A DNA stretch of 61,280 nucleotides, filler included, from Porpidia crustulata (taxonomy: Eukaryota): NCBI GenBank assembly GCA_964255105.1. It is 4 parts of 4 records of this genome, joined end to end, with 100 filler letters (N's around TTAATTAATTAA, not from the genome) between each part and the next. Parts side by side here need not be neighbours in the genome. Positions count along the whole stretch, not along the records: positions 30,716 to 45,954 come from CAXUWE010000328.1; 3 more parts are not named here. One strand, given 5' to 3'. Shown in pieces: positions 30,616 to 53,044 of this stretch; position 1 is the first letter of the stretch; each line of letters begins with the position of its first letter. The translations under genes were made by a program, and so were the position numbers. A model generated the notes under the pieces. That model saw only the letters and a list, made by a program, of their open reading frames with translations. It was not told where the DNA came from and did not search any database.

Positions 30616-30715
30616 NNNNNNNNNNNNNNNNNNNNNNNNNNNNNNNNNNNNNNNNNNNNTTAATTAATTAANNNNNNNNNNNNNNNNNNNNNNNNNNNNN
30701 NNNNNNNNNNNNNNN
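30616..30715. other. Artificial contig spacer
   Basis: 44 N + TTAATTAATTAA + 44 N. Confidence 0.98.
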
Positions 30716-32016
30716 GTCTGCTGGGGGTTAGTTGTTTGATGGGGTATGAATGCGGGGATGGGAGGCTTACGCCTCCGGGGAGCCATTCGCCGGCGACGGT
30801 GTCTCCGCCTGGGGGAACGGTACGGGGGTGGCCCCAGGGAACTGCGGCACTGACTCGGAGACCTTCGGAGATGACGGCGTTCAGGTACGGGAGTTTCTCG
30901 CAGGATGAATATGTGATTTCGGATTCGGTTTGGAAGGAGCCTCGGACTTCCGTGACGAGCTGCTTCAGGACATCCGGTTCCTGCAGGAGGCCGAGGGTTA
31001 GACCGACTAAGCTGGTAGCTGTAGTCTCGCTGCCAGCGATGAGAATTAACGGGAAGCTGGACTCGATCTCCGGGATCGACATTCCTTTTTCATTGTTATA
31101 TCGTAGCACGGCCTTCATGAAGTCGGGCGTATCAACTGTGGAATTGAGACGTTGATGGACTTTGGCCTGGGCTTTCTTGAAGATCTGAGCACGGCGGTAA
31201 AGGGCTTTTTTCGGCGTCATCATCCGCATGAAGCGGTCCAGCCAGGGAAAGTATCGACAAGATGTGCTGAGCGTGGTGTATAGAAATTGCCCTACCAGCA
31301 TTTCACACCAGGGACGTTCTGTTTCATCTCTCAACGTTGCAAATGACTGACTGAATGCAAGGTAGCCAACAATATCGAATGTTAGCCAATGAAACCATTG
31401 AGTCATGTCGAAGACATCCGCTTTCGAGGCAATTTTGGCACGCATTTGTTCAATGAAGAGATCGACTTGCGTACGAACGAGATATTCTTGTTCCCGCATC
31501 ATCTTGTCCGAGAAGGAATTGTTCAGAAGCTTCTTGATCCGGGCATGATCTTCATCATTGGCACTGAAGATTGAGTCCACCCCATTCATAGTCTTGTTGA
31601 GCCAAAGGGAGTTCTTTTGAAAGGTCTGATGACCTTGTCGATGAAGATAGATATCTCTCCAGGCGGCTCCGTCCGTGAAAGACAGCTCATCAGGTGCGAG
31701 TCGGACAATATGGCTTCCATAATATTCATGATACTCTTTGCTCAGCTGGACAATTCGACCTCTGCGCATAGCAAGTACATAGGGGATCCGGGAGGCTCTC
31801 CAAAGCCATGGTCCTGGAAAACGTGCAAGCGGATGGAAATAGACGTTGTAGATAAGAGAGCCGATATAGTATATCAGGAACTTGGACAGCCATCAGCGGC
31901 GTCAACACAACCTCAAAGAGCTTCTATCCTACCAGACCAAGAGATAACCCAGAGAGAATTTTGGTATTCTGTATAGTGACCCAGGTAGCAGCAATGGTGG
32001 GATCGAGGATGGCCAT
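30716..32016 (-). CDS. Cytochrome P450 (CYP65-like, secondary-metabolism type); heme-Cys exon lost at the contig end
   Basis: YNVYFHPLARFPGP, IVRLAPDELSF, I-helix AGSETT, ExxR (EGLR) and PRTVPPGG. Confidence 0.92.
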
Positions 32017-33240
32017 AACGATGATCGGATAAGACACTTGACTCTGAAATGGAGCGAGAAATGAAGTAGGAACACGAGGAGATGAGTGGAAAGTAGCTAG
32101 CTACAAGACAAAGCTCAAATTCAAGAGACACGGGGATCCTCTCTTGAGGCGGGGAACAGGTTCAGTATCAAACACGCCCGTGGTGTTATCGCACAGTACA
32201 GACGGCTTATTGTGGGGAATCCTTCTTCGTCTGTGGGGGCGTTGGGAGTCTTGGCTTTATTACGATAGCTTATGCTCTTCACCTATCTCCTAATCTATGG
32301 TTTCAATCGTTAGCCTTGAGCCGGCACTACTTTGTATAGCATGGCTGTTACTAGAAATAATCTGATAACATCCGGCGCACTTGGAAGTAACGACATAGAG
32401 GTGGTCCGGCCGCGTGGCATTGGTTGCATGTAGTGAGGCACAGTCTGTATGCACTCGTCGAGGTTGCATATGCAGTTGGAATCTCCGGACCTACTAGCTG
32501 CTTCTCGCACAGTAAGTCGTCAATCGTGATGGATGGCATAAGTGGGACAGAATGCGGTGAACGCAATCAACCGATGAGGTTGAGATTGGTTTATTACCAA
32601 TGATATGACATAATATCTTACCTGCATGTCTTTCCACCGTTGCATGATGACTTTGATGGTTGCGCGTACTTTAGACACGGTATTGGCATTGGTGGTAGCC
32701 GAGCGTATTATCTTGATCGTTCGCATACACACTCGTGTCTAGTCGTCCTTACGAGGCTCAAATTCGTCTGACCCGAGCCCGGCTCCCAAATACATATCGA
32801 GTCGTACTGCAGACGGTTCCGTACTTTGGTGCCTTGTGCACTGGAATACCTCCGTGCCTGATAAATCTAGCCTATCAAGAACTTGCCAGCGCTCACTTGG
32901 TCCGATACCCTGCGCATTACGGTGCATGAAACGGGCCCTGCTTTGATAGCCGGTTTCCTCTAACTCTCTCACTCCATCCTGTAATCCACCGCGGGTCCGG
33001 TCGTGCGCGGACTATTACTCGAACTGTAGAGTAGATAATCCTCCTCTCCACGTGGCTGCAGATCGGTCGACTTGTACAATCCGCTAAAGAAGCGTCTAGC
33101 ATTTAAGCCCCCAATGCCAATCTTTCTCTTAGTGGTATTTGGGTTCTTGTATATTACCGCCGTATCATATCTCCCTCCAACGTCTATAATCTGACTTCTC
33201 TCATGTCATCCATGCCAACTCTATCTTGTCTATGCGATTT

Positions 33241-34367
33241 TCACATGTAACGCTTCAAAACTATCGATCTCAAGCCCGCTAAATGCACAACCTGGGCACA
33301 GTTGACAAGGATATGAAAGATCTGATGGCTGGCACCCTGATTTGATCAGACCATTTAAATTCCACACCGGTCGTCGGCATAGTGGCATGGGAGACTTACC
33401 CAGATGTCAAATACTCCTGGCCACAGCTTTTCTGGTGTCCTGGTGACGTAGAAAGTAGTTCCTGTTAGGTAAAGTAAAGATGATAGATTAATGTAGCTTA
33501 TCGGAAAGCTATCGAAACCTGCGAATCCATACTGGATGAAGGCATGAATGATAGGTGCAAAACCACTACATCCTAACGCAATAAACACCACGGCCCTGGT
33601 CCTCATGTTAGAGAGTAGGACTTGACATCTCCTCTTTGGCTTACCTTAGGAATGCACCACTGTTCCCGTCGATATGAGGGTCCAGCACAACCCAGAACGT
33701 AGCGATACCGCAGGCGATGATGAGAGAGATATAGAACGTCTGCAGGAATTCGTTATCGTAGAGTCCAAAGTAGGTGGAAGATATGCAGGTCGATGTAATA
33801 TTGAGAACGATTCCCAGATAGTCCAGTTTGAGATGACGGCGGGCGACTTCTTGAGAGTGACAGCTAGTGCAATGGAAAAAGGCCTCGAGAATTGTCAGAT
33901 GTTGTTCGAAGCACGCCGGATTAAACAGTCCTAGGAAAATTGAACTCAACATTCATACTGACCGAGAAAAAGAGGCAACCAGTTGCGCCGGCGAGGTATG
34001 ACTGCACAGCCCAAGTATCCGAGGACGAGATTTTGGGGCAGTCATGAAGTATAGAATAGTCAGTGGCGAGCAACAACGACACAAAGAAGAGGCCAACAAG
34101 TAGATGCGACCATATATTGACAGTCTCATTATGCAGATAGAACAGCGACTTGTAGCATCTGCCGAAAGAGTTCAACTGCTTTCGATATCCACCGCGAATG
34201 AATGGGTCGATTTGCATCCACTCCGGTAGGTCCTCGAATGACACGACATGTTGCAGCGCTTCCAAGGTTTGGTCCTTCAGGTGTATGGCTTGGTCCTTGA
34301 GTTCGGCAATCTCGTCAACTACATCCGTCACACTCTCTCCAACGGTCACGATGTTGTTTCTCATCAT
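33241..34367 (-). CDS. PAQR / hemolysin-III (AdipoR/Izh-like, CREST superfamily) membrane protein
   Basis: LPEWMQ..FIRGGYR, HNETVNIWSH, S-AFFH, LDYLGI, PEKLWPGVFDIW and GASHQIFH. Three introns. Confidence 0.92.
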
Positions 34368-35182
34368 CGTTGCTGCCAGCGTGCACGCTATGCTGACGCT
34401 GTAATGAGTGAAAATAACGAGAACAGTGTTTCATTTCGGGTCTCCATATTTTAGGGTATGATCCAATCCGAGTAGTTGTTCGAGTGGCTTTCTTTTCGCT
34501 CACTTTTGTGGGCCTAGACGGATTGAACTCCGAAAATCCCATTGCTTGGAAGAAGCTAGCAGTGAGTAAGCGCTGTTTCACTAGCCATCCGTTCAATGCA
34601 ACGATATCGATGCATAAGACATGAGGTTAGCCCGCTGTACAGCGGAAGCGTAAAGCGATACAAGTGGCTTGTAATAAACCACCGTGCCACCGCGCGGGAA
34701 CGCAACTTAGTTGATCCTCGGCCGGGGCTTAGAGCGGGAGAAAGAACCCTATTTCTAATTCTACCACATTTTGCATGATTACCGGCACGGTATGTGTTGG
34801 GCGATCCTGGCTGATCTCCTCCTTAATTCCGATTATGACGGTAATTTTGACCGATTGTAAAACACCGGAAATCCTTATCGAGTCTGTGGTTTTTGGGCTT
34901 GCATATGGCGTCCTCTACCGCTTACTTACGTGACAGATTCCCCTTGATTAGGTGTGCTTTTAGAAAAGTATATTACTCTCAATCCATGATCCATGGATAC
35001 TTGAATGTCAGCCAAAAAGAAGCCTCGGCTCAAGATCGGACCACTCGGCGGGATCTTTCCGCTCCCGAGAGCCCCGCGGAACGTGGAATTATTCCGTGTT
35101 CGCCATTGTTCGTTCTTCCAACAACCCTCGAGCTCTTGAGTCTTGCGTTCAAACAGTGACATCCGACAACCACCTTGCCATC

Positions 35183-35899
35183 ATGCCTTCACCCAAGAAC
35201 CAGGCGATTGATCCAGTCGTCGCATCTTCTTACTTCCATCCCGATGGCGGTGAGTTCTATAAGAATTCACGGCAAAAGGTCGTCGCGCAAGCTACGGCAA
35301 TGGGCTACGATGCACCAACTTTCAGAGAGCACGGTGTGGACTGGGCCAATGACCAGGATCCGTTTGGCCACGTAGGCGGTGCGACCTATTCACGTCTGGT
35401 GTATTCCTGTAATTTCCGTCTCTTCGAAAGTTTTGCCAAAACTCTGAAAGACAAATACGAGGATCTTTATCGCGCTCGCGGAGTTGGCGTGCTGACCAAG
35501 TCGTACTCGATGGATTTGAAGCGCCAAGTCACGTATCCGGACTCCGTAAGTAGATCTGTGATCCTGTGCAAGGGTCCGAAACAATGTCTGGCGGCAGGAG
35601 TTTGCTGACTACTAATCGTACAGCTAATGACGGCCGCTCGTATCACGGAGGTCAAGCCCGATCGTTACTTTTGTGTCACCTCCATCTGGAGTTATCAACA
35701 ACAAGCCATTGTGGCAGAAAGCAGTGGATACGTCGTCTTCTTTGACTATCGGAAGGGCCAGGTTGCCAATTTGGTTGAATATGGGGGTGTATACGCCGAC
35801 TTGCATGCAGATTTGACCGAGCGTTCGAAGAAGGCAAACGAGCTGAACGCAAGGTGGATCGTTGATAATCCAAGGAAGAGCAAGGGACCGAAGCTTTGA
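35183..35899 (+). CDS. Hotdog-fold thioesterase (4HBT-like)
   Basis: VDWANDQDPFGHV motif, GVLTKS..DLKRQVTYPD and VFFDYRKG. Intron 35546-35623. Confidence 0.8.
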
Positions 35900-36126
35900 T
35901 GTTTCTCAGAATGGTGCTATCTTAATTGTTACCTATTGATTCCGGATGGCATATCAAGTCCACAAATATCACTTCTCCTGTGGCGCACAATTTGTAGTCT
36001 TCGATACAGTGCCTGCAAATCGACATCACTCAGTCATGTGATTTTAGATATTTCAAAATTCCGTGATAGAGAATAATGGAAATTAATTCATAAAGGGCAT
36101 TTGATTCAGGCAAATCGAGGGAAATT

Positions 36127-37310
36127 TCAGATCCTCTCACAAGGTCTTTCGTATCGGGCAACCATGGGTTCAACGTCTAGACCATCACCATCACCTGGTG
36201 GGTATGGTCTCTGGATTTGGAAGCCGATATGGTGGCTCATACGATCAATCAAGTGATTTGCCTCTGCAGACCAGTACTATTTAGAGAGTTAGTGTGAACC
36301 CCGTACAATCGCCCCGTACAATCGGTGGAGGATGATTCATACCGGCAATTCTCTGCGCATGTACGCTGTTGGCAGATCCTCATCAACATAGAAGCGACGT
36401 ACATCTTCTACGTAAAGCGTACTGAGCCCATGCTTGCCCAAGCGTCCCAGCACGCCTACGAGATTGGTGTATTGTGCACTAGATATCATTAGCTGGTAAA
36501 TACAGCAGGGCAACAATAAATCATACAGTGAACATATCGCTCCCCTGTTACCGAAGCGAAAATTGGGATTCTCTTGAACGCTTTGGTTGTGACGTAGGTG
36601 ATGATGCTCGGCAAGATCCTCAAGGCTCAGAGTCTCGTTGTCTTTGGAAAATCTCAACAAGGATTCAAGTAGGGTCATATTGATATTGACATTTTCGCCA
36701 ATACCGCGGTCATTGCGAGTGGGTGCTGCTGGGCAATTGATGATATATTGGACCTGATCATCCTACTACTTGTTTAGCAATTTCTCCCAAGTTATTACCA
36801 GCACACCTTACATTGAAGAAGTCAAGATCAATTTGGGCGGGCCAACCGTGAGCTTGGAAGGTAGGCTCAATCACAAGCATGCTCTGGATTCGTCAACTAA
36901 GAATGAATCAATTTTCTGCTGGGCTGGCTTACATTATCCTCCCCAAAATTATAGACGTCTCTAACAGCCCGATATAGACTTTCATAGGTGATGTTCCGGC
37001 CAGATCGGTTTATGTAGCCTCTATTGGCTAACATATTGATAGCAGGACAGGAAGAACGTCTGTAATATCCATCGTCTGATCCATTATGAAGCTGCTTGAA
37101 CCAATTGACATGTTCATCAATAGGTAAAGGTTTCTTGTAGGGAACTGGGTTTGCTGGGTCAGGATACCACGGCTTGTTGTGAACTCTACCTGAGCTCTCT
37201 GCGAGTGGTTTCTGCGGAGAGCGCAAAGAGAATCCATATCCCACGGAAGAAGATGCCAATCCCAAAATGAGTACAAGGAGTGAATATGTTCGAAGACTAT
37301 GCAGCTCCAT
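36127..37310 (-). CDS. Secreted heme-thiolate peroxidase/peroxygenase-fold protein (Peroxidase_2) with atypical active site
   Basis: Signal peptide; RSSCPAINMLANRGYINRSG (canonical RxPCPxLNxLANHG); R...S..ENPNFRF; FYVDEDLP. Five exons can be assembled with canonical splice sites. Confidence 0.85.
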
Positions 37311-38465
37311 GATCCGAAGAGCATGAGAAGAGAGCAGAGATATCGCAAGACTTAGCCTCCTTAGAGACCCCGATATACTTTGGCAAAGTAGACCAATATG
37401 TTCGCGGGAATGATTGGCTCTCTGATAGATCAAGGTAGAGAATGAACGTAATATGTCGTTCTGCTGCTGCTATCGATAAGGATCCTCTTAGCGGGCAAGG
37501 TAAAGGACGAGTGCTTGGTTCATCAAGAGTCCAATTACAAATGCTGTATGCTGGAAGTCCGCTGTAATATATGATTTGAAAAATACAAAGTTGTAATACA
37601 ATACAATGCAATGTTACGGGCGCCGGCCAACAAAGCAAAAACTCCACAAAGACCATTGACGAGCGAGCATCACCTTAATCTCCGGGTAGGCTGGAGGACA
37701 AATAACACAGTGTGGGGGCTCTAGCTAGAATGATTTGTGGAGTCTTAGGCTGATACGCTGCATGCGCACCAAGCTTACCGTCGATGGGGCGATTTTCCTT
37801 GCTGACCACCATAAGCACATCATTATAGCTCGTGCAAAAGGCGAACGCCCAGCATTTCGTGTCTCCGTTCTTGCATACAGAGACCCGCTCATTGCTTAGC
37901 ACTGCAGTTCTTATCTTCCAGACCGCAAATTCTCGCTATGGAAGGTCGGAAAAGTACAGGAATATCCCTTATGAAGCACTCGGCGGCCCACGGCAGGAAG
38001 CCAATGAACTTGAGACATGAGACATGGGACACGCCAGTAATGTTGTCGACTTAGCTGAGATCGAAAAACCCTAGAAATTCAATAGGATTCTTGCTCATGA
38101 TTCGGAGTCTTGTCCGATTGTGTGGTTTAATTCTTAGCAGACCATGCACCGAATCACAGGGGTCCAAACTTTCCGAAGAGGCGTAGTCTGCGTGATGCTT
38201 GTTCTCACGTGTGTTTAGAGAAATCGGGTAGATAGGTCTCTGATACCTGCTTTGCAATATGAGAGACTCTTTTGCTCCTCTGGGCGAGGATCGACTTGGT
38301 AGTCTCACTGGAGTAAATTTGATGCTCAATTTCTGCGGTCATCCACGACACTTAAATCCTTCTGTTGCTTCTGATACTTCAGTATTTCTTCAGACAGTCT
38401 TGACGCTTGACCGTATTCTTCAATAGAATATATCCTATCTGTATACGTTCTCATTTTGCTTCCAA

Positions 38466-40406
38466 ATGATGAGAGTCTCATGTTTGTGGTACTTCGTAGC
38501 TTGTCCAGTGGTATTGGCAACGGTCCTCCCCCAATCTTATCATCGAATAGAACAGCAGTACCTCTTTCCGAAGCAAGGGGACTTTGAAGATGGCCGGAGA
38601 AAGTACGTGCTTCCTGTGTTCGATGCTACACCTTCGGAACGAGCAGACCAGATTGAGCGCAATCGAGAAGGGTATCTATATGGCGCTTCTCGGCTAGGAA
38701 ATACTTCGTATTTTCCCACCGGTCTGCTGGGAGATGCAATGGTTAAAAGAGACGTTGACCGCTGGTACGAGGATGCAGCATGGGTTTCAGTGAACGTGGA
38801 GAAGGAGAGTCAATTAGCTGCCGCCGCAGTGGCTAGAGTAAGAAACATCCCATCGATCGAATACACATGGACACTTACTGTACCAGGGTGGAGGCTTGCA
38901 AGATCTTTCGAGCTTCGACCGACTGTATGATGATCAGTGGGAGCTCACCTTGCCCAGCGGGGTTGCACCTGGAGCCCAAACGAATTACACTCAGGATCTG
39001 TTCTTCTCCATGGAGCGACTTTCCGTAAATCCATATGTTGTAGAACGGATACATCCCCAGACTAAGGGACTTCCATTTGCGATTGAAGACTCTGTCGTTT
39101 CTCGCATAGCTGCTGGGATGACTCTGGAAGCCTTACATGCAGCCGGTCGACTGTTCTTGGCTGATCATTCTTACCAAGCCAGATATCCCAAGACCCAGGG
39201 TAAGTACTCGGCAGCCTGCAGTGCATACTTCTATATACACCCCCAAACAGGTGATTTCCTTCCATTGGCAATCAAAACAAATGTGGGGAGCGACTTGATC
39301 TATACACCGCTTGATGACGAGAACGATTGGTTGTTGGCCAAGATGATGTTTAACATGAACGATCTATTTCACGGCCAAATATTTCATCTTGCCAATTCAC
39401 ACGCGGTGTCCGAGGCTGTGCATCAAGCCGCATTACGTACACTCAGCGAGATGCATCCCATCAGAGCTTTCTTGGACCGTAGTAAGTTTTTTTCTGTCGT
39501 CCCTTATAGAGTCTTAGATTGATTTTTGCCACTATAGTCATGTACCAGGCATACGCTATTCGACCTGTGGGTGAGCAAGTGTTGTTTAACCCCGGCGGCT
39601 TTTTCGATCAATCGTTCTGTCTGAATAATGAAGCTGTCCGCCAATTTGCGACCGAGTATTATCCTACGGCTGCAGGGCCCTTTCAAGCCAATTATCTTGA
39701 AGAAGATTTGATTTCTCGTGGTCTTGTTCACTGCCCATATGGTCCAGCTCTCAAAACCTTCCCATTTTATGAAGATGCAAGACCCATATTTGCCGCGTTG
39801 CGCCGGTTCACCGATGCTTATCTCCGCGTTTACTATCCTTCGGAAGACTTTCTCACACCCGACCATGAATTGCAGTCATGGATCGTGGAGGCAAACGCCG
39901 CAGCTGGGGTCATAGACTTCCCCGACTCGCCGCTCGTCGCACGAGATGTACTCACATCGATCCTCAGTCACGTCGCCTACCTTAACGGTGTCAGTCACCA
40001 CGCACTCAACAGTGGTACACCGGCTTCAACTTCTGGAGTGCTGCCCTTCCACCCAGCAGCCTTCTATGCGCGGCTGCCTACTGCAAAGGGAGTCGTTAAC
40101 TCCCTGATGCCATTCCTTCCCAACATGACCGATGCCCTCGGCCAGATAACGCTTTTGATCCGGTTCAACCGGCCGAAGCTTGAAGAATCAGGTGAAAATC
40201 TTGTCCATATGTTTTCAAGCCCCAATTTTATAGGGTACGGCTCTGCTGCTGTGGTCAGTGCTGCGAAAGTTTTCGAAATTGAGATGCAAGATATTAGCGA
40301 CAGGATAATGAGCAAGGTCTTCGATGACACAGGTCTTGCGCAGGGGATGCCATTCATCTGGCGTTCGCTGGATCCAAGGAAAATACCATTCTTTCTAAGC
40401 GTTTAG
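38466..40406 (+). CDS. Secreted fungal lipoxygenase, manganese-LOX-like (about 611 aa, no PLAT domain)
   Basis: Signal peptide; [19 protein letters not shown], metal ligands FHLANSH and SHHALN, and C-terminal IPFFLSV. Introns 38838-38886 and 39482-39537. Confidence 0.93.
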
Positions 40407-41106
40407 GTCGATTGCTGTTCTCTGGGTTTGATGGGGAAATGAAGGCGTTCGAGACCAGGAAAAAGCAAGGCAATGCATTGGTTTTCAGATGAGTTTATGA
40501 GTTTCGGAGTTCTCTTTAAATATTCAATGAGAAACGAAGATCGCAGTGTTATTCCTGTAGAGCGACGACAAAGTGGTTTTAGACGAAGCGGGCTGGTATA
40601 AAAATCATGGATAACTTCTTCCACAGGGGAAACTGATATGATAAATATCGAGCGTTACGGTGTAATAAGACCAGCGTGACCCCACTCTTCTGACCGGAGA
40701 GCTCCATAGAATAGAAGAAGAATTCTCTATAGGATCTAGTACAGATTGTAGGAGACTCTATTGCAGCAAGGGCATGATATATAGTTTACGCAAGAATATT
40801 GATTTGGATGCTTTGAGTTCCACCATCAGGGTTCGCGGACACACATACACACATTTTAACGTTCCGAACAAATGAAGATACTTCCAATCATCATAAACAA
40901 CGATGCATAGCATGCAGACTCAGTGTCCGAGACAGTATAGAGATGCGAAAGTGATGAGAAAGCTGATGCAATTCATCAATTAGTGTGTCTCTGCATGGCC
41001 ATCCACCCAATAATGCATTTTGCTGCATTCTGCAGACTGCATTCAAGTAGGGATAGGTAAGAGAAGGAAGTATCTATGATCAGCGAGCCGCGGAGGTGGA
41101 TGAGTG

Positions 41107-41412
41107 CGGAATGAAGTCGATAGCTAGCCGTGGTGTAGTGCAGCCTCCAACTAAGTAAATTTCGAGACGCGGAATGGTAGCGCCCTTGTTGGCGATTCCG
41201 TCCGAGACCGTACACAGCAAGCGCGGAACGAAGACGGAATGAGGGCGGAACAACGACGGAACGATGCGACATGATGGGCTGTCTCACTACCCGATATAGT
41301 TAGATAGTTGACGGGCGTCAGGGATGTCGTACCAGCTGTATGATACGGAATTATCTGGATCTAGCATAATGCGGCAGGCAGGCATACCTAGACACCACTG
41401 CAGACTGCGGAA
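41107..41412. promoter_or_regulatory. Array of CGGAA half-sites upstream of the MFS gene; putative Zn2Cys6 binding sites
   Basis: CGGAA at 41107, 41170, 41224, 41235, 41246, 41257, 41346 and 41408, plus TTCCG at 41196. Confidence 0.55.
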
Positions 41413-41829
41413 TACACCTACCTACTATGAGACTTGCTCCGCCGGCAGGCAATAATACTTGAGCCGTCACACCATATCTACTTACCTTGATACACAGAGA
41501 GTTGTGCGAAGACCATGAAAGCCCGGGGTTCAGAGCCAGCTTGCTATGAAGCAGAAAGCAACAGCAGGAGCAGGCCCACCTGCGACTGTACAACACATCG
41601 TTGTTGCCTCCCTCTCTGATTTCTGGTCTGATCAACACACGCCCAAATATACTGCTATGGGGCTCTTGCTTTCATAGGCTCACATTGACTTCTGCAATTT
41701 CTATCCCTGCATGCTTTCCTGCATGAGTTCACCTCCGCTTATCCTCTTATTCCTCGGCTGATATCCCCCGATTTCTTTCGTTTTATTTGATCTTGGCTTC
41801 CCCAAACGTTGCTCACCAAGGTCATCAAA

Positions 41830-43625
41830 ATGACTTCGACAGACACGCTGGTGAGAAGGGTACGTTTTGAGGATGATGGATCTTGTACGAAGCAGAGGAC
41901 TTATCCATCCTGTAGGGCGCCGCCCCAGATCAGGCCCCTGCCCAGTCCTTCGAGATGACCCCTTCCCCATCTCTGGAAGGGGGGCATAGCAGCACCAAAG
42001 TCGACGATGTCAAGTCGCCGTTGACGGCGTTACAGGACTGGGATGGCCCAGATGATCCAGGGAATCCACGAAATTGGAGTCTAGGCACCAAGATCTATGC
42101 AACTGCCATTCCGGCCATGTATGCATTCGCAGTGTTTGTGTTTTCTCTTCGCGCCGCCTGTCCATGTGTTGATAAGGTGCAGAACTTTTGGCACCTCTGT
42201 ATACACTCCAGGTATCCCTCAGATTATGGAGCGCTTCCATGTGAGCCAGACTGTTGCAATACTTGGGCTGTCTCTCTATTCGGAAGGCATAGGTATACGG
42301 TGTCATGTAAGCTATACATCCGGTAAGAGCTGATCAGTGAACGTAGCACTCGGGCCTATGATCGGCGCTCCAATCTCAGAAACCTTTGGACGGAAAATGG
42401 TCTACGTCGCCACCATGCCCGTCTCTCTCCTCTTTACGATGGCTACAGGCCTCGCTCAAAACATCACCACCATTCTTGTTTGTAGATTCTTCTCCAGTAC
42501 ATTCGGCGCTCCAGCTGTGGCGGTAGGAGCAGGCACCATCTCAGATATCTGGGATTTGCAACATGGAGGTGGCCTTGCCACGGCACTGTTTATCCTTGCA
42601 CCATTCGTCGGCTCGTCCATTGCTCCACTGGTTGGCGGCTACACAATGGAGGCGAGGAACGATTGGCGCTGGCTGATGTGGGTTATGCTACTCGTTGGAG
42701 GAGCCGTTTGGATCATGGCATTTTTCTTTGGGGAGACATCAAAGAAGGAATTACTTCGACGTCGAGCGATAGAACGTGGAGTGCCCTCGCCCCCGAAACC
42801 CCCAGCCAACGCAGCCCTCAAAGCCCTGTTCACGGTCATTTTATTCCGACCACTTCGAATGCTGCTCGTAGAGCCTATTGTAGGGTCGATTACTCTATAT
42901 GTCTCGTTTGCTTTCGGGGTCTTGTTCGCCTTTTTCGATGCATACCCATATGTTTTTGTGCGCGTCTACAAATTCAGCCCTGGGGAAGTAGGTCTCGCAT
43001 TCCTTGGCATCATAGTCGGGATATGCTTCGCAGTCATCACTTTCATTATAGTTGATAAAACCATCTACGCGAAAGCCAAAGCGAGGGCAGCAAAGGGTAA
43101 AATGCCTCCACCCGAAGAGCGATTATATATTTCCATGCTGGGGTCGCTTGGTATCCCAATTTCGTTATTTTGGTGAGTTTTGCCTTCCTCTCTCTCATTT
43201 GTATACAGAATTCATATCAAATTCCAGGTTCGCTTGGACAGCCCGAGCATCCATCCATTGGATTGTACCCGTTCTCGCTGGTATCCCATTTGGATGGGGG
43301 ACAGTTTGTTTGTTCGTAAGTAATTCCCGTGCTAATAGTTTCATTTTACTCACGGGCTATGCAGCTCGGAACAATGGCTTACCTTATCGACGCGTATCAC
43401 GCCTTGAATGCTGCATCAGCAGTTGCTGCAAACGGTCTGCTCCGATACAGCTTTGGGGCCATCTTCCCTCTATTCACCATTCAGATGTATGACAGGCTTG
43501 GAATAGCCTGGGCTGGTAGTCTCTTGGGTTTTATTAGCATCCTGTTACTTCCCATTCCATGGGTTTTATACAAATGGGGCCCGTACCTGCGCAGCAAGAG
43601 CTCGTATGAGATGGGAAATTTCTAG
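41830..43625 (+). CDS. MFS multidrug/H+ antiporter (DHA1 family)
   Basis: DWDGPDDPGNPRNWS, GPMIGAPISETFGRK, GAGTISDIW, PEERL and YLIDAY..AASAVAAN. The start exon is approximate. Confidence 0.92.
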
Positions 43626-44580
43626 TGAAATTCTTGACGAATTCATCCAGAATGGTTACTAAGGGTATTGGAGGAAGCATTAGGACAAGGGATACTTGGA
43701 CCAACCAGTATTGGCAGCTGGGAAAAGGATCGGTGGTGGTGATTAGTTTGGAGTTTGAGCGAGCATACCCCTTCGTGATTGCTATGCAATGCCATGACAT
43801 CTGCATTCTTAAGATTATTATTTCGATCTCCCACTCCACATATAAAACTTCCAACATCCTTTTTAATTCGCCCAGGTATCCCAAATTCTCCCAATAGATG
43901 GTTTCCAAACCGGCAATATGACGATCCAACTCTGAGCATCATGCACATCGACTCAATCCAAGCCCACCACTCTCACACTTGACACAAGCCTCATCGGCAG
44001 TCAACCTCCCACGGCGATAGGAATGCACGCAGCCACCAGATCCCACCGGTGCCGCAGCGGCTGCAACCCGTTCGGCTCAACAAGGTGCGGCACAGCGCCA
44101 AACCATCCCTCCATCTCCATGCCCGACGTATGAGCATTGTTTGCACGTCTCCAAACCATGAACAGTGACGAATGCAAAGGAGGAAGGCAGATTCTCATAG
44201 ATTCGCACGAGTCATGAGGCCAGGCTTGATATAAGGCGAGCTAGAATGGTGGGTCCACAAGCCCTTGTGTTTATCCAGTTCCAACAGCATCGATTTATCT
44301 AGTGCGTCCGGATGAGCCTAGAATAATGACTATAATCCTTTGCATCTACGGGGAGATTTCCTTTCAGAGACGTCCACGCCGAGACTTCCGGAATCCAGAT
44401 GAATGAAATTCACCGATTGTGCATGCCTAAGGGCAACCACCAGCGCCGCCTCCACTGGTCCACACTCAATCTCTGGGGGTACGCAGGGTGACAGGCGGCT
44501 ATTCTAGAGTAGCCACTCCATCTATGCGCTCAAACGGACCGTGGGAGACAGATCAACTGAAACCTCGCAGAATAGCCCAA

Positions 44581-45381
44581 ATGGCCAACCTCAGGTACAA
44601 TGCCATGACCATCCCTTCCCCAACGCTGCCCTCGCTTACCGAATCCAGCACCGACGACTTCATCGCCGCTATCATCAAAGCCCACGGCGGCGCAGATCGT
44701 TGGTCGAAAGTCCACTCTATTGAAGTGACCTTTCAGTTTTCCGGAGCCCTCCTCGACCTCAAAGGCTACCCGGGCCACCATACCCCAACCGTCCACATCG
44801 ACACTCAGACCCCGAAAGCTATCATCCAGCGCCTAGGCGGGAACCCCGATGACCGCTGGATCTATACCCCGGAACGTTGCTGGATTGAGCGCAAGGATGG
44901 GAAGGTGCTCCAGATGCTGGACAGCCCGCGAGACTCTTTCAAAGGGATGACGAGAAGTAGTCCGTTGTCGGATCTGCAACTCACCTACTTCCTCGGCTAC
45001 GCCATGTGGAACTACCTCATTGCGCCGTTCTTCCTCATCCGCCCGGGCTTCTCCGTCAACGAACTCGGCACGCACACCGAGTACGACGAAGTCTGGCGCG
45101 TTCTGGAAATCACATGGCCTGATGACATTCCCGCGCACCACCGGACGCAAAAGTATTACTTCGACACCGAGACGTTCATGTTAAGGCGGTTCGATTATGT
45201 TGCCGATGTATTTCAGGCACATGCGAGTCACTATTGCTTCGATCCCAAGACATTTGCCGGGATTGTGGTACCGACGATGCGGAGGGTTGTCAGGAGGGAC
45301 CCGGAGACTGGCAGGGTGTTCTTTCACGGGCCGACATCATTCCTATTAGATTACACCGACGTGATTGTGCGGGAGGATTGA
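44581..45381 (+). CDS. Intronless conserved hypothetical protein resembling a bacterial/fungal AHGGxxRW family
   Basis: IKAHGGADRW, YFLGYAMWNYL..PF, WRVLEITWP..I..H...QKYYFD, LRRFDY..DV and GIVVPTMRRV. Strong C/G third-position bias. The start may be 44581 or 44605. Confidence 0.8.
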   Translation: MANLRYNAMTIPSPTLPSLTESSTDDFIAAIIKAHGGADRWSKVHSIEVTFQFSGALLDLKGYPGHHTPTVHIDTQTPKAIIQRLGGNPDDRWIYTPERCWIERKDGKVLQMLDSPRDSFKGMTRSSPLSDLQLTYFLGYAMWNYLIAPFFLIRPGFSVNELGTHTEYDEVWRVLEITWPDDIPAHHRTQKYYFDTETFMLRRFDYVADVFQAHASHYCFDPKTFAGIVVPTMRRVVRRDPETGRVFFHGPTSFLLDYTDVIVRED

Positions 45382-45954
45382 ATGCGATGGGACTTGCTAC
45401 CTTGTCTGGCACGATAGAGAAGAAGATTTGCATCTTGATGCTGTGGATCATCACGCCCGGAACAATTACACGTACAAGGACAGCCGGCGATTACCAGGCA
45501 AGCACGACTGCAAAAATAGGTTTCAAATTGGCCGCAGCAGGATCAATGACCAATACCAAGGCCCAAAAACTCGGAAATCCCTCCCTACTAATCACTACCA
45601 ATAGCGAGCCAGAGAAACAATACCATACAGTCAGCACCCAAGATTATACCAATTCGCCCCCTTCTTAAGCCTCGATTCTAAAACCCTCATACAGTTTCCC
45701 CTGTCAATTGTCCTTTTCTGATCTATCACTTGACATCCCGGATAATCTCTATAAGTGCCCACGCATCGCGCAGCGCGCAACCGATCCATCTTTCACTTTA
45801 TTAATACATCCCTTTACTATCTTTATCTCTCTACCGCATACCTCTTATGTGGTCTTGTTCGTTTTATCACTAGAAACAAATTTCCGGTTTCTTTCATCTC
45901 ATCACGTCACCCTGTTACATGCCCCTCATCAATCCCTCATCGCCCTCCCACCAT

Positions 45955-46054
45955 NNNNNNNNNNNNNNNNNNNNNNNNNNNNNNNNNNNNNNNNNNNNTT
46001 AATTAATTAANNNNNNNNNNNNNNNNNNNNNNNNNNNNNNNNNNNNNNNNNNNN
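45955..46054. other. Artificial contig spacer
   Basis: 44 N + TTAATTAATTAA + 44 N. Confidence 0.98.
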
Positions 46055-46567: not shown

Positions 46568-49500
46568 TCAATGACCAGCAGCATACATATTATCATAGGT
46601 ATTGCCGCTGCTATATCCAGATCCTCGTGATCGTTTTCTCAGATTAGCTAAATAGCATCGGAATCGTGCTGTTTTGGAACTTTTCCTTTCGTCTGTAGCT
46701 GAAGTCGCAGTATTCTTGTCTGATCGAGTCTCTGCCAATTCGGATCCTTTGTGGAGGTTGAGTTGCCATGAGGTTACCGATGCTGGCACTGTTGGAGATG
46801 CTGATGAAATGTCTCGATCAAGGGCTCCTCGAGCGCCTACAGTAATATGCTTTTCCATGGTTGTTGTGGTGGACGATGCGTTTGCTTGTTCATGCGTGCC
46901 TGCTTGCTTAGGGGAACCCTCTTTGAGCTCTGTTAAAGGCTGTTTGACTATCTCTTGGGCGGGTTCGTGCATTTTTATCCGTGCAGAGTCCCCGATATGC
47001 TGTGCCATTATTTTGTCAAGAATGAGTTCGTGAATCGTTCTCTGTTCTTCACTCATCTTCTCAGCCGGCTCGAAGTCAAGTTCTTCAATACTGGCGCTAG
47101 AGTCGAGGAGTAGCTTCACTGCTGATAGGTTATTGGTAGCTACTGCTGCTTGCAATGGATTTCTAAAGATTCCAGCACGCAGATTGACTTTTGCTTTGCG
47201 ATCTATGAATAAAGCCACCAGGTCTTTCTGACCGGTAAATGATGCCTGCTGAAGCGGACTTCCAAAAAGACCGTCCTCAGCATCAACATTCGCACCCACA
47301 TCTAGCAGTCGCACCACGATGCTTTGTTGTTTCGTAGCTATGGCCATCTCTAGAGATGTACTCAATATCTCTTCGCTAAAGTTCGAGCAGCGGCCATTAT
47401 TTAAGAGAATATCTAGAATACTAGTCTGTCGATGAAGTATGGCTGCTCGCATTGCATTGCCAAAGATCCCTCCTGTTATATTGATGCCAGCATTGCGGCT
47501 CAAGAGCAGCTTCACTGTGGCCTCTTGGCCAGCTGACGCGGCAGCTTGTAAGGCAGTGCCGTAAAATCTACCCCGAGCATTGACTAATGCACCTGCACTA
47601 TTTGTGTCAAGAATGATTCGGACTGTCTCAATTTGACCACTTGAAGCTGCTTCGCGGAGTGCACGTGCGCTGGAAGCTGCATTTATTTCTTTATCACGTA
47701 GACTGGTTCGAATTTGATTGACATCTCCTGTAATGGCAGCATTAATCAATCTATCTTCTGTAACCTTAGTGAAAGGTGAACTTATATGTTCGCCTATCTG
47801 GACATCATCCTTCGGGCCTGGCCATGATCTGAAGTTCAGGTATTCAAGCCAAATTATTGGTTTTTCTGACCCAAGCTCAGACTTCTCGGGATTTCGCAAG
47901 GCCTCGACGTTTTTTAGCAATTGCCAAGTCCGTATTGTAGAAGGGTTGTCATCTCCAAGAATCCTCTTTTGCTCTCGGTGCGCAAGGCTCAGTAATTCTT
48001 CGGCATCTTTGACGTAACCTTGTAGAGCATAGACACGCCCTAGGCTGCTCATGGTCAATAAAGTGTCTGGATGACTGGCCCCTGGCGTTCTTTTTTGGGC
48101 CTCAAAGATGTCGTGAAGTTGCACGGCCGCATCGTTATCATGACCGGGGCCGCAAATATAGTCAGTGAGTCTCTGAGATATACGCAAAAAATCTGGATGA
48201 TTTCTGCCAAGAGCTTGGCCCAAAGCGCGAAGAGCGTGACGGGTTATAACTTCAGCAGCTGGAAGATCATTCTTTCTCGCCATGATCATGGCAAGATCTG
48301 ACATGCGGTTGAGAGTGAATGGATGCCCTTTTCCGTACACGGATATGGACATCCGTACGACGTCACAAGCGATTGATTGCGCAATGTCATACTTTCCACA
48401 ACCTAAGAACAATTTTGCCATCACGTCCATGAATTTCACCTGTGGAACTAGTTCCGGATCATTAGAACAATCAGAAGCTGAGCCTTCGAGCGCGTCACGC
48501 AAGAGACTATAGGCGGTCTTTCTCTCTCCTTGGTAGATCATAGTCAGGGCGAGATTACCGCAGCTAAGTAGTGTGGCAAAACTCCGCTTCCCAGAAACTT
48601 CTATCCGAAGATTCAATACCTCGTTCCCAAGATCGTGAGCAGCTTTGTAGTTGCCGCGATCTCGAAGTAAGAGCGCCCGTTTGTCACGACAAAATAAGGT
48701 TAGATGGTGCGTCGCCCCGAGGGAATCTTCATATAGCTTAGCAGCACCAGTATACTGATCCAGTGCTTTGTCGTAATAGCCTTGATCTTCAAGCATCAAA
48801 GCAAGCCGGCCAGAAGTCCTGGCCTCGGGGCTACCCTCGCTTGAAGCGACAAGTTCTTCACAGCCATCCGGGGTGGTAGGGAGATTCCTCAAGCGGCCAT
48901 CGAGGGGGCCTGACAGAGAGCGTCTCATGAGAACTTTGCTATCTTCTGCTAGAAAACACATCATTCTCAGGCTCTGTATCACAGTTTGATATCGCATATC
49001 TGATGGCGTTGAATATTTAGTCATATCCATATGGTTTACCTCAAGAGCAGTAGCATCGCATCCGGGTATGACTGCGTGCTGTTTCTCCACAAGCTATATC
49101 TGTTTGTCAGGAGAAGAAACTTGATTATGATCAAAGAATCGAGAGGACATACAATACCAACCTCGTCAGTCGGTAGTGTTTCGTAGAAGCACACGATTCT
49201 TTGGGCAAAGGATTGTTCAGGTATCCATTTAGTGAAATCAGAATTGATAATCCCAAGCTGGCGAGTATTGCCGATACCGCTAAGGGTTGACGGTGTCATC
49301 GGATTCAATGTCTTGTCGATCGCACCCAAAAATTGCGTCCAATTCTTCTCACCAACGCCAAATTGTGGCAGTCCAAGGAAAATGATACCACATACGGAGG
49401 TACGTAAACGGTCATTAGCTCTCTGCAGCGCATCCTGAAGGATGACGCCCCCAAGACTGTGTGCAATAAAGATGACAGGACGTCCGGAATTTTCTCTTTG

Positions 49501-50503: not shown

Positions 50504-50560
50504 TAGTCATGTTCTCCTGACCCGACGTGAGCCCCAGTAGTGGGTTCTGCAGCCTTTTTG

Positions 50561-53044
50561 ATGGAGCATTTGAGTGATGGGAATAATGCTTTTGTTTTCG
50601 AACACAAGGTTCGTTGCTGTTGCTACTCACAACTACCCGACGACGATTATGCGCGGAGTCGCGCATTGACATTGGAAGATTTTTGGAAGCTGCCAAATAC
50701 CCTTGGATGGTCAATTGATGAGAACGGAGAAGCGCAGTCCGAAGAGCAGCGTTGTTCACTGGACCAGGTGACACAGCGCTGGCTTTGGTTTGAAGTTCTT
50801 GCGCAGGTTTTTGGTGATCTTCCTCAATTTCGATGGAATGATTTTATCTATTACGACCCTGATGGTGACAGGTTCCTCAACACCAAAAAACTGCCCCAGT
50901 ATGTTGCAGCATGGTTGGATAAGGAGAAATCGAGTCCTGATAAGCAGAGGACGTGGAGTTTGATACGAATCCAGCAGGTATTAAATAGGGCAAAACACTT
51001 CGTATCGAAATATTGTGCGGTCGAACAGCGCACTGGATTCCCGCATTGGCCACTCGATCCCTTACTCTCGCTCTCATACATGGTTCTAGGGGAAACCTTG
51101 ATGCACGCCCAGACCAAAATTCTAAAGGCAGTAGACGGGCGGATACTTGGTTGGTATAGCCAAGACTCCCCAAACGATGGTTGGGGTTATAGCGGATGGG
51201 TACTTGAAAAGCTCAAGATGGATTTATGGTGTGCCAAAGCAGTCTTTATGCTTCAAGCCTTACTCAAAGGCAACAGTATTGGGCTATTATATCTGCGCAC
51301 AATCAGAGATTGCGAAGCGACAAGAGGGCCGGCCCACCAAAGTTGCACACTAGGCGAGTGTCGTACAAAAGCTATCAAGCCAGAGGCCTTTCATTACTGT
51401 ACTTTTGCAAGCCAATCGCCTTGCCTAGGATATAAGAACGTTGATACTGCAAAGCTTGCACAAGTTGTTAGGAAAGGAAACATTCCAGTGTTCCAGTGGG
51501 ACGGACAGCAGAATGAGCTGCGCCAGGTCGAGATGAATGCCTCTTTCGATAAACGTTACGTGATCTTCTCACATGTTTGGGTGGACGGGTTCGGAAGCTG
51601 TGACAAGGAAAATCGGCTTAATACATGCGTACTGGACATGTTCTCCGACCAGTTCGATAAGATTAACCAGGACAGGAACCCGACTCCGAAGACGAGCAAG
51701 TCCGAAATGTTTTGGATTGACACGCTGTCGATTCCAGCAGGAGACAGTTATCAAAAAGAGCGTACTCAAGCCATTAGGCAAATGCACAAGATCTACACTC
51801 ATGCCCAGTACACAATTGTCTTAGACAAGAGTTTGATGAACATGTATAAAGGATCTGGCTATTCTGGACCAGCTATGAAGATCCTCATGAGTCGGTGGAT
51901 GACCCGCATGTGGACTTTGCAGGAGGCTGTCTTGAGCAGGCAGATCTATTTCAAGTTCAAGGACCAGATATACTCCATAGACCAGCTTGAAAACCTGTAT
52001 ATACGAGAAGCTGCTGCATTGCACACCTGCGTGCCGAAACTATCTCAATTGTACTATCACGGCATCCTCGGAGAGAAGCGGGACCGCGTCCATAAAAAGA
52101 CGTTGAGCGATGAGCGGTGGAAACCAAAAGCTTTGTTCATTGCGATGGTATGGAAGGCAGCGCAATGGAGGTCAACTGAACACCGTCATCACGAGACTCT
52201 GTCGTTGGCAACACTGCTAAATGTAGAGGCAAGCGAATTCGCGAAGCCCGTCGAAGCCGCAGAAGGAACCCCCGAATATGAGAACGATTGCGATCAAAGG
52301 ATGCACAAACTCTTGTTCCTCCTTTCGGACATCGTACCATGTCCCCTGCCGCCAGGAATGATTTTCCTCCCTGGACCACGACTCACCCAACGAGGGTATG
52401 GATGGGCGCCAAAAACTTGGCTATCGTCCTGCGAAATTGATGCCCCCGATCCACTCTCGGCTACTGGAAAAAATGAAGGCACAAGATTCGACAAGTATCG
52501 AGGTCTCGAAGTTGACTTCCCTGGCTTTCTCTTGCACCACCTCACAGTGGATAGAAACAGCCTACGCGGCAGTAGGACGTTTCAATTCCCCACTGATTCA
52601 AACCTCCTGGAATGGTATTCGGTGGCAATCGCCGATGCCGATGACCATTTTCCGAGCGAGTCTGATCTCCGGGAACGACCCATGGCTATTCTTGCGTCTC
52701 GCATACAAAATTCACAGCCGAAATATATCGCCTTGCTGGTCGTGATCCAAGAGACCCATAGCGAGAGATACTACGTCGGAATCCTCAATCGAGTCTGGCT
52801 ATCCCGGGAGAAGAGCCAGGCAAATCTCACGAATTGGAGCCGCATGTTTCGAGAGGGCTCGACCGAGTCCATTTGTGCAGGGGAGAGGCTACCTGCAACC
52901 CAAAAATGGTGTGTCGATGGATTCAACCGTCAGGATCATGATACGTTGAGAAAGCTGTCGATGCTGCCCCCACCGGCAGCGCCTTCCCAAAAATCAGAGC
53001 AGTACAGCCACAAGATCCTTAGGGCCTTAACCTGGAAGAACTAA
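50561..53044 (+). CDS. HET-domain (heterokaryon-incompatibility, TIR-like) protein, intronless
   Basis: YVIFSHVWVDG, FWIDTLSIP, AIRQMHKIYTHA..TIVLD and SRWMTRMWTLQE. Cys/His cluster (HQSC..GEC..HYC..C) upstream and GYGWAP downstream. Confidence 0.9.
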   Translation: MEHLSDGNNAFVFEHKVRCCCYSQLPDDDYARSRALTLEDFWKLPNTLGWSIDENGEAQSEEQRCSLDQVTQRWLWFEVLAQVFGDLPQFRWNDFIYYDPDGDRFLNTKKLPQYVAAWLDKEKSSPDKQRTWSLIRIQQVLNRAKHFVSKYCAVEQRTGFPHWPLDPLLSLSYMVLGETLMHAQTKILKAVDGRILGWYSQDSPNDGWGYSGWVLEKLKMDLWCAKAVFMLQALLKGNSIGLLYLRTIRDCEATRGPAHQSCTLGECRTKAIKPEAFHYCTFASQSPCLGYKNVDTAKLAQVVRKGNIPVFQWDGQQNELRQVEMNASFDKRYVIFSHVWVDGFGSCDKENRLNTCVLDMFSDQFDKINQDRNPTPKTSKSEMFWIDTLSIPAGDSYQKERTQAIRQMHKIYTHAQYTIVLDKSLMNMYKGSGYSGPAMKILMSRWMTRMWTLQEAVLSRQIYFKFKDQIYSIDQLENLYIREAAALHTCVPKLSQLYYHGILGEKRDRVHKKTLSDERWKPKALFIAMVWKAAQWRSTEHRHHETLSLATLLNVEASEFAKPVEAAEGTPEYENDCDQRMHKLLFLLSDIVPCPLPPGMIFLPGPRLTQRGYGWAPKTWLSSCEIDAPDPLSATGKNEGTRFDKYRGLEVDFPGFLLHHLTVDRNSLRGSRTFQFPTDSNLLEWYSVAIADADDHFPSESDLRERPMAILASRIQNSQPKYIALLVVIQETHSERYYVGILNRVWLSREKSQANLTNWSRMFREGSTESICAGERLPATQKWCVDGFNRQDHDTLRKLSMLPPPAAPSQKSEQYSHKILRALTWKN

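Follow-up and report, generated by a model that had tools for sequence, protein, structure and literature searches.

A conserved lipoxygenase, haem-thiolate protein and PAQR gene trio amid lineage-specific accessory genes: a possible oxylipin module on a contig of Porpidia crustulata

Seven genes, several of which have a lipid flavour, lie together on one contig of Porpidia crustulata (CAXUWE010000328.1, assembly GCA_964255105.1), and the question that this locus raises is whether they form a single biosynthetic cluster, as a first-pass annotation of the DNA had proposed, or whether only a smaller unit among them is held together across fungi. The contig is the third piece (piece 3, positions 30716-45954) of the window, that is, of the whole stretch of 61,280 nucleotides, filler included, that was analysed, and all coordinates given here are those of the window. 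As far as gene neighbourhoods show, the conserved unit is a lipoxygenase (LOX) gene together with the gene of a haem-thiolate protein (HTP) of an NCP type, joined by a gene of the PAQR family. Whether piece 3 carries a conserved three-gene oxylipin module, with the chemistry proposed below, amid lineage-specific accessory genes is a reading to which we would give an even chance. The three genes are the following:

33241-34367, minus strand: PAQR gene, HlyIII family, AdipoR-like; four exons, with introns 33950-33884, 33644-33596 and 33399-33337; fitted to the Xylographa orthologue P0060
36127-37310, minus strand: HTP gene, Peroxidase_2 fold, "SCP...NCP" subfamily; 323 amino acids, five exons, with introns 36932-36884, 36811-36763, 36526-36479 (in frame, 48 nt) and 36342-36277; fitted to the Xylographa bjoerkii homologue P0029
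38466-40406, plus strand: LOX gene, homologue of Val-type manganese lipoxygenases; 611 amino acids, three exons, with introns 38838-38886 and 39482-39537

Gene models were drawn from splice consensus and orthologues, and sequence searches and folding of the spliced genes made use of single exons or of database orthologues.

Linkage of the three genes in ascomycetes

The best matches of LOX, HTP and PAQR were all Xylographa proteins, at 63-70% identity (69-70% in the case of LOX), and by these matches the DNA belongs most likely to a lichen-forming Lecanoromycete. Two routes were taken to the neighbourhood of such homologues. The first relied on the locus tags or accession numbers of named homologues, adjacency being read from the numbering convention. 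In X. bjoerkii, LOX (MMC18_001013, MCJ1388168) and HTP (MMC18_001012, MCJ1388167) lie on one contig of 300,895 bp; in Periconia digitata, LOX (CAI6332244) and HTP (CAI6332246) also share a contig, as do LOX (KAH8722840) and HTP (KAH8722836) in Phaeosphaeriaceae sp. PMI808, on a contig of 348,134 bp. PAQR and HTP carry the tags MMC34_000254 and MMC34_000256 in X. carneopallida, and LOX and PAQR the tags MMC11_008641 and MMC11_008644 in X. trunciseda. In Aspergillus fumigatus, AFUA_4G02780 ("toxin biosynthesis peroxidase, putative") belongs to the 90% cluster of the HTP homologue P0052, and loxB is Afu4g02770 according to the portion of PMC5422543 that was available.

The second route was a scan of metagenomes with the LOX alignment, taking flanks of 10 kb, which rendered 41 loci (numbered with the prefix L); these were searched with the exon translations of piece 3 (tblastn, E<=1e-5), and chosen loci were also scanned with Pfam. 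An HTP was found within 10 kb in 12 of the 12 metagenome loci in which LOX was at least 53% identical to that of piece 3 and the upstream flank was usable, and these represent four lineages (L004-L009, L033, L010, L011 and L012 are the loci named in this count). L004-L009 and L033 are nearly identical to one another, with LOX 80% identical to that of piece 3, and agree with piece 3 in the order and the strand of each of the seven genes; in L002 and L003 (LOX 81-83% identical) the succession of LOX, MFS transporter and hypothetical gene is kept up to the contig ends. L010, L011 and L012, mutually about 70% identical, are more distant, their LOX being 53-55% identical to that of piece 3. In this second group (clade B), LOX is 61-69% and HTP 60-69% identical to Pleosporales proteins, so that the two genes form congruent clades, and the genes around them are as follows:

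L010 (5350-19621): P450 (minus), LOX (plus), DUF829 (minus), MFS (plus), CN_hydrolase (plus), HTP (plus), PAQR (plus)
L012 (1022-10472): PAQR (minus), HTP (minus), CN_hydrolase (minus), LOX (plus), DUF829 (minus)
L011: HTP (minus), LOX (plus), DUF829 (minus), then the contig end

The CN_hydrolase of L010 and L012 is amidase-like. The motifs RRSSCPAxNxLANRG and QYxxNCPAAPTRND are present in the HTPs of both groups (L005, L009, L010, L011 and L012). A DUF829 gene adjoins LOX in L028 too, as it does in L011.

Around paralogous LOX lineages, 40-49% identical to that of piece 3, no HTP or PAQR match was found in 12 control loci amounting to 156 kb. The control lineages were L015-L024 with L037 (48-49% identical) and L031-L032 (40%); they share several metagenome assemblies with the loci described above. 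Likewise, no Peroxidase_2 or HlyIII match was found among the open reading frames (ORFs) of at least 110 amino acids on the remaining 45 kb of the window.

Taken over both routes, the linkage of LOX and HTP is seen in at least nine lineages belonging to three ascomycete classes. The Lecanoromycetes are represented by Xylographa and metagenome relatives, the Pleosporales by Periconia, PMI808 and three metagenome lineages, and the remaining class by A. fumigatus. PAQR accompanies them in six of the six lineages examined that had enough flank (piece 3, the 80% group, two Xylographa species, L010 and L012). The arrangement of LOX and HTP is not constant: they may be adjacent and divergent, have one gene or three genes between them, or be inverted. 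Such a rearranged gene order across lineages argues against a synteny that was simply inherited.

The P450, thioesterase-like, MFS and hypothetical genes of piece 3, on the other hand, are in the loci compared conserved among close relatives only (LOX 66-83% identical), at which distance plain synteny would keep them anyway. The P450 and MFS genes of the Pleosporales-like loci had no tblastn match to those of piece 3 even at E<=1, and neither DUF829 nor CN_hydrolase is found on piece 3. Of the seven-gene unit that had been proposed, therefore, the LOX, HTP and PAQR genes recur in distant fungi and the other four only in close relatives; a comparison of co-localisation across fungi, which the first-pass annotation had named as its check, is favourable to the trio, both by locus tags and in the 41 metagenome loci, while in L010 and L012 the accessory genes are replaced by others. 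No paper that connects a LOX of fungi with either a Peroxidase_2 gene or a PAQR was found in the literature searched, which was largely without subscription journals and supplements, and the LOX-HTP-PAQR module is apparently undescribed.

The three proteins and the chemistry proposed for them

By its motifs and its last residue, the LOX of piece 3 is predicted to be a Val-type manganese LOX. Pfam Lipoxygenase (PF00305) was recovered on two of its exons, 38842-40403(+), and exons 2 and 3 matched the structures of Magnaporthe oryzae Mn-LOX (5FNO, E 1.7e-82 and 8.3e-76) and Gaeumannomyces 13R-MnLOX (5FX8, E 6.4e-77 and 1.1e-68), with about 55-60% identity in these alignments. The His/Asn motifs FHGQIFH...H and SHHALN, of the forms HxxxxH and HxxxN, some of whose histidines we take to be metal ligands, stand at the same positions as in 5FNO and 5FX8. 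Its C-terminus reads ...FLSV, so that the last residue is Val, as it is in these enzymes, and "Val-LOX" appears as a type name in PMC5422543, as far as that text was available. The likeness in full-length alignment and in size, at about 611 amino acids, extends to A. fumigatus LoxB (Afu4g02770), which the same portion of PMC5422543 describes as a Val-type Mn-LOX, reported to contain Mn, to make 13-HPODE and to affect the timing of spore germination. The difference is that the known Mn-LOX enzymes are not described as members of gene clusters in the literature searched. The N-terminus of LOX is hydrophobic and, judged by eye, signal-peptide-like.

The N-terminus of HTP is signal-peptide-like as well. 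Pfam Peroxidase_2 (PF01328) was found on two of its exons, 36340-37469(-), with E 2.2e-14 and 2.9e-9, and the protein matches short unspecific peroxygenases (UPOs) in PDB around the helix of the cysteine ligand, where xCPxxNxLANxG is conserved. An alignment of 18 HTP homologues with the two HTP exons of piece 3 (alignment A2), the profile of which matched PDB UPOs with E 4e-16, keeps the haem-ligand Cys in 19 of 19 rows, as SCP and not as PCP. The profile sets INCPAAPTRND opposite IEHDASLSRED of the Marasmius peroxygenases (MroUPO), that is, NCP at the position of EHD; at this position NCP is present in 16 of the 19 rows, NSP in one, NGP in one and a gap in one, with neither EHD nor EGD. The stretch SES of MroUPO, which holds the catalytic Glu, falls opposite LAQY with no Asp or Glu nearby, although the accuracy of the alignment is limited there. 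In the part of PMC6417270 that was available, the set PCP-EHD-E is assigned to the type of chloroperoxidase (CPO) and MroUPO and the set PCP-EGD-R-E to that of AaeUPO, and many "UPO-like" sequences are described that have neither set. With EHD replaced and the acidic residue apparently absent, the HTP falls outside the UPO motif definition of that paper, and by its motifs it is a haem-thiolate protein of Peroxidase_2 fold, not a canonical peroxygenase. What had been annotated as a UPO-fold haem-thiolate protein thus keeps its fold and its Cys ligand (Pfam, A2) and loses, by the NCP at EHD, the standing of a canonical peroxygenase.

An AlphaFold2 (AF2) model of the X. bjoerkii orthologue, made with a 20-row alignment, was poor (pLDDT 61.7) and was used for the fold class only; with this low-confidence model the top Foldseek matches were all UPOs (TM 0.60-0.65). 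Compared with MroUPO (5FUJ), CviUPO (7ZCL) and CPO (1CPO), therefore, the HTP shares the Peroxidase_2 family, the conserved cysteine-ligand helix and a best fold match to short UPOs, and differs in having SCP for PCP, NCP for EHD, apparently no acid at the aligned Glu and an additional conserved C-terminal segment of about 60-70 residues. The last HTP intron (36277-36342), if left unspliced, leads to a premature stop after "...ELPV", and the public model of the X. parallela HTP (P0031, 276 amino acids) ends at the same point as the unspliced form, so that this model is probably without the last exon. The HTP of A. fumigatus, AFUA_4G02780, is listed among the SignalP-positive proteins of the conidial wall (Table 1 of PMC7389560, a source available in part).

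As to the third gene, Pfam HlyIII (PF03006) was recovered on three PAQR exons, 33358-34430(-), and the Xylographa orthologue P0060 matches AdipoR1/2 with E 1.5e-29. The motifs ExxNxxxH, FH...KLD and HxxxH, which presumably hold the zinc-binding residues, are all kept. The HlyIII domain, the match to AdipoR1 and the metal-site motifs liken the protein to AdipoR1/2 and the fungal Izh proteins (class I PAQR), from which it differs in that its subfamily is about 31-43% identical to other fungal PAQRs among the matches listed and in that none of the known PAQRs was found tied to a lipoxygenase locus in the literature searched. The Xylographa PAQR models P0061 and P0062, of 502 and 574 amino acids, are about twice as long as expected and may be merged models; the PAQR matches also include an Ostreococcus protein, P0066.

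It is probable that the trio makes, or makes and senses, oxidised-lipid signals. The module would consist of a secreted Val-type Mn-LOX, a secreted HTP in which the Cys ligand is kept and both the EHD and the Glu of the acid-base and Mg site are lost, and a PAQR of AdipoR type. In the first step LOX would convert linoleic or linolenic acid into a hydroperoxide, as enzymes of its family do. The HTP would then use the LOX hydroperoxide directly, rearranging or reducing it in the manner of CYP74 and of catalase-type allene oxide synthases (AOS), a proposal that we draw from the linkage with LOX and from the loss of the motifs. The chemistry of CYP74 and of the catalase-type AOS needs no acid-base pair for the activation of H2O2. 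The PAQR would either free the fatty-acid substrate by an amide hydrolysis similar to that of AdipoR, which has ceramidase activity, or sense the product.

The closest precedents are the established ones of plant LOX with CYP74 and of the coral fusion of a catalase-type AOS with a LOX (PDB 3DY5), in both of which a LOX is tied to a haem enzyme without the usual residues for the activation of O2 or H2O2; the coral fusion was in fact among the PDB matches of LOX. The HTP fold would be a third one, unrelated to these two (Peroxidase_2), the genes are separate and not fused, and a PAQR is part of the set. It is a doubtful but conceivable extension of the proposal that the ascomycetes have a widespread and unrecognised oxylipin pathway in which the HTP is the fungal counterpart of CYP74 and of the catalase-type AOS, and a dedicated PAQR is the receptor of the product or the hydrolase that supplies the substrate.

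Several observations weigh against a module of this kind. The linkage in Periconia, PMI808 and A. fumigatus is known from consecutive accession or locus numbers, not from coordinates, and the PAQR count leaves these three out together with L011, where only 8 bases follow the HTP match before the contig stops. The LOX lineage of L015-L024 and L037, 48-49% identical to that of piece 3, goes without HTP linkage, and no cluster was seen within two genes on either side of the Penicillium Mn-LOX genes in the part of PMC8464941 that was available. On the side of the chemistry, the argument from the lost HTP motifs stands or falls with a profile alignment between proteins that are only distantly related, and the AF2 model, as said, is poor. 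Finally, an extracellular LOX and HTP with a PAQR in the plasma membrane fit sensing and substrate release about equally.

Accessory genes and alternative explanations

The gene content from which the proposal of a seven-gene cluster had started was confirmed. Piece 3 has 111 stop-to-stop ORFs that reach 60 amino acids or more; a Pfam scan of them all recovered families for six of the seven genes at the places that the first-pass annotation had given, and a nucleotide conservation of 75-80% with the related metagenome locus L009 coincides with exactly seven genes and not with the spacers, which indicates that all seven are real and that there is no eighth. Their strands along piece 3 are minus, minus, plus, minus, plus, plus, plus (P450, PAQR, thioesterase-like, HTP, LOX, MFS, hypothetical), so that the two divergent pairs that had been described, PAQR with the thioesterase-like gene and HTP with LOX, are both there. 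The four genes that accompany the trio, and the spacers of the two divergent pairs, are these:

30716-32016, minus strand: cytochrome P450 gene, 3' end missing; ATG at 32016, intron 31932-31881, long exon to 30770
About 30769-30721, minus strand: second intron of the P450 gene, followed by 5 bases of a further exon, where the contig stops
34368-35182: spacer of the divergent PAQR and thioesterase-like genes, 815 bp, bounded by gene models
35183-35899, plus strand: hotdog (4HBT_2-like) thioesterase-like gene; two exons, intron 35546-35623
37311-38465: spacer of the divergent HTP and LOX genes, 1155 bp
41955-43625, plus strand: MFS transporter gene (MFS_1); draft model of about 480 amino acids, 5' exons tentative
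44581-45381, plus strand: "hypothetical" gene, predicted LolA/LolB-like fold; single exon, 266 amino acids

The P450 (Pfam p450, E 1.2e-34, 30717-31892(-)) covers profile positions 21-347 of 462, in agreement with the earlier statement that the contig breaks inside this gene; its I-helix reads AGSETT, and with 90.6% identity to L009 over 384 amino acids it is the most highly conserved of the seven. In L009 a further exon carries the haem-cysteine motif FxxGxRxCxG, and the missing part was looked for on the window's three remaining contigs and not found there. The contig of L004 also ends inside the 3' part of the P450 (L004:1-292), within 300 bases of the same place; that it and piece 3 (30716-30770) end near the same spot hints at hard-to-assemble sequence beyond.

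The label "thioesterase" rests on two weak lines, a Pfam 4HBT_2 (PF13279) match at 34964-35605(+) with E 1.2e-3 and 19.7 bits, below the cut-off of 25.5 bits, and an Atlas comparison in which 155-163 features are shared with 4HBT_2 clusters (feature score 0.90), and a search of PDB sequences with the exon gave no match; both exons are 82-87% identical in L007-L009. The MFS transporter (MFS_1, E 3.1e-21, 42334-43173(+)), a putative member of the DHA1 subfamily that the first-pass annotation named, has main exons 86-91% identical in L002-L009, and a brute-force search of GT-AG introns in its 5' part found no model that retains the conserved ALGP stretch.

The gene that had been left as hypothetical does lack a Pfam family, none being found in a scan of the 316-codon frame 44431-45378(+), but it is not an orphan. 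It is one of a large family that has no name (1669 representatives at E<=1e-3), and the members from Trichoderma, Aspergillus, Phialocephala, Zasmidium and Bradyrhizobium go by no other label than "hypothetical". No meaningful match was obtained with PDB sequences, while an AF2 model (pLDDT 94.2) gave a half-barrel like that of LolA/LolB, with 62 Foldseek matches in PDB at E<=1e-3, the best of all being 3buu, an entry of the LolA superfamily (E 1.3e-9, TM 0.59), and most of the best-ranked ones being LolA, LolB, RseB or LppX. We therefore predict that the gene encodes a LolA-like fold and a putative lipid-binding protein. In a homologue from Zasmidium cellare (P0095, 543 amino acids) the LolA-like part is fused to a domain named AB hydrolase-1 in UniRef.

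In the HTP/LOX spacer, two blocks (about 37714-37864 and 38070-38224, tblastx segments outside the gene models) are conserved with L009, unlike the rest, and could be promoter or 5' untranslated elements. No conserved ORF was found in the 815-bp PAQR/thioesterase-like spacer by comparison with L009. A k-mer search, made without shuffle control, revealed no shared promoter word, the best 8-mer being present in 6 of 17 upstream regions.

It could be the case that all seven genes are one cluster with a linear route in which the thioesterase sets an acyl chain free, LOX dioxygenates this chain, HTP converts the resulting hydroperoxide, the P450 carries the oxidation on and the MFS transporter exports what is formed, with the PAQR sensing or hydrolysing. 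The conservation of order and strands in L004-L009 and L033, and of LOX-MFS-hypothetical in L002 and L003, agrees with this, as do the conservation of the genes and not of the intergenic DNA in L009, the space that the Xylographa locus tags leave for a thioesterase-like gene between PAQR and HTP, the lipid flavour of the hotdog-like and LolA-like genes, and the degree of conservation of the P450. The first-pass annotation had, however, arrived at this route by conjecture from the gene functions, and it sits awkwardly with topology: a microsomal P450 acts on the cytosolic face, whereas LOX and HTP carry signal-peptide-like N-termini, unlike, as it seems, both the thioesterase-like protein and the P450. 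Moreover, conservation of all seven genes is limited to relatives with LOX 66-83% identical, where synteny is expected; the trio in L010 and L012 is accompanied by amidase and DUF829 genes, and in L010 by a P450 and an MFS gene unmatched to those of piece 3; and the thioesterase call is under the Pfam cut-off. We regard the seven-gene route as unlikely. The P450, hotdog thioesterase-like, LolA-like and MFS genes would be better described as an accessory set of the lichen lineage with a lipid flavour, whose membership of the pathway is conjectural. Both accessory sets, the lichen one (hotdog-like, LolA-like, P450, MFS) and the other (amidase, DUF829, P450, MFS), have hydrolases, a P450 and an MFS transporter, and their lipid theme fits the proposal and proves nothing.

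The secreted LOX and HTP could also peroxidise foreign lipids, be it of an alga, a host or the substrate, the PAQR and the transporters handling the products, so that the locus would serve extracellular lipid attack or scavenging. The N-termini of LOX and HTP, the A. fumigatus HTP in conidial-wall extracts (PMC7389560, as far as available) and the recurrence near the trio of hydrolase (amidase, DUF829, thioesterase-like) and MFS genes are in line with this, and lipid attack and signal synthesis fit the data alike. The tight conservation of one particular PAQR subfamily, however, is more easily squared with one defined ligand or substrate than with the breakdown of lipids in bulk, and the effect of A. 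fumigatus LoxB on germination timing, in the available part of PMC5422543, is a phenotype of the signalling type. Lipid attack is an improbable account, and the making of an oxidised-lipid signal by the trio is preferred.

A larger cluster with a polyketide synthase (PKS), nonribosomal peptide synthetase (NRPS) or fatty-acid synthase core beyond the broken P450, of which these genes would form the tailoring edge, is quite unlikely. Piece 3 does end inside the P450, as L004 does nearby, the canonical AGSETT I-helix is typical of monooxygenases, and on its left side the searches reach no farther than the P450 itself. Nevertheless, no ketosynthase, adenylation or other synthase domain was found in the ORFs of at least 60 amino acids of piece 3, the side beyond the P450 not being covered, nor in ORFs of at least 75-80 amino acids of L009 (1-3600, 10900-12300 and 14000-20864, which reaches 5.2 kb past the hypothetical gene), L010 (20.9 kb) and L012 (10.5 kb), nor among ORFs of at least 110 amino acids on the window's three remaining contigs, and the trio recurs in quite different surroundings. 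The absence of a PKS or NRPS core that had been reported holds, then, for all of these regions, the DNA beyond the P450 lying outside them.

Lastly, although the lack of a common promoter word and the LOX lineages without HTP or PAQR partners would suit a neighbourhood that is accidental, or inherited as mere synteny, between functionally unlinked genes, this is very unlikely, since in three classes members of one HTP subfamily are found no farther than 10 kb from members of one LOX clade in spite of inversions and inserted genes, and neither the 156 kb of control loci (HTP or PAQR) nor the remaining 45 kb of the window (Peroxidase_2 or HlyIII, at the ORF length given above) had a match.

The rest of the window has ordinary fungal genes. 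Its four pieces, of 15269, 15246, 15239 and 15226 bases in descending order, which points to separate contigs of a fragmented assembly, ordered by size, are joined at 15270-15369, 30616-30715 and 45955-46054 by runs of N flanking a short 'ttaattaattaa' linker, and no feature can be read across joins made of filler. The other contigs carry, in order:

4400-4747, minus strand: aspartyl protease
9210-9755, plus strand: FAD_binding_3 monooxygenase
11229-12319, minus strand: amidase
14306-14839, plus strand: fungal-rhodopsin-domain protein
21065-22375, plus strand: Iwr1
54406-54954, plus strand: GNAT acetyltransferase

On the fourth contig there are also an ORF of 841 amino acids with TPR and ankyrin repeats (46571-49093, minus strand) and one of 837 amino acids with a HET domain (50531-53041, plus strand), both of them genes of NLR-like or heterokaryon-incompatibility type.

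Significance of a locus of this type

The locus resembles the secondary-metabolite clusters of fungi that are found by core rules in its co-localised P450, MFS, hydrolase and oxidoreductase genes and in its divergent promoters, and differs from them in that neither a core enzyme (PKS, NRPS or terpene synthase) nor a transcription factor for the cluster can be seen and in that the conserved part has three genes only. Cluster finders keyed to PKS and NRPS cores will therefore miss loci of the LOX-HTP-PAQR type, and a picture of seven genes drawn from a single contig claims more conservation than there is.

The fate of fungal LOX products, the natural roles of most "UPO-like" HTPs and those of fungal PAQRs are largely unknown, and the trio joins these three questions in one locus. 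The LOX-HTP locus reaches from lichen fungi to A. fumigatus, where LoxB has a germination phenotype according to the source cited above, as far as it was available. If the proposed module is true, it would provide a natural function for one branch among the "UPO-like" proteins, of which there are thousands, and the first lipid ligand or substrate for a fungal PAQR.

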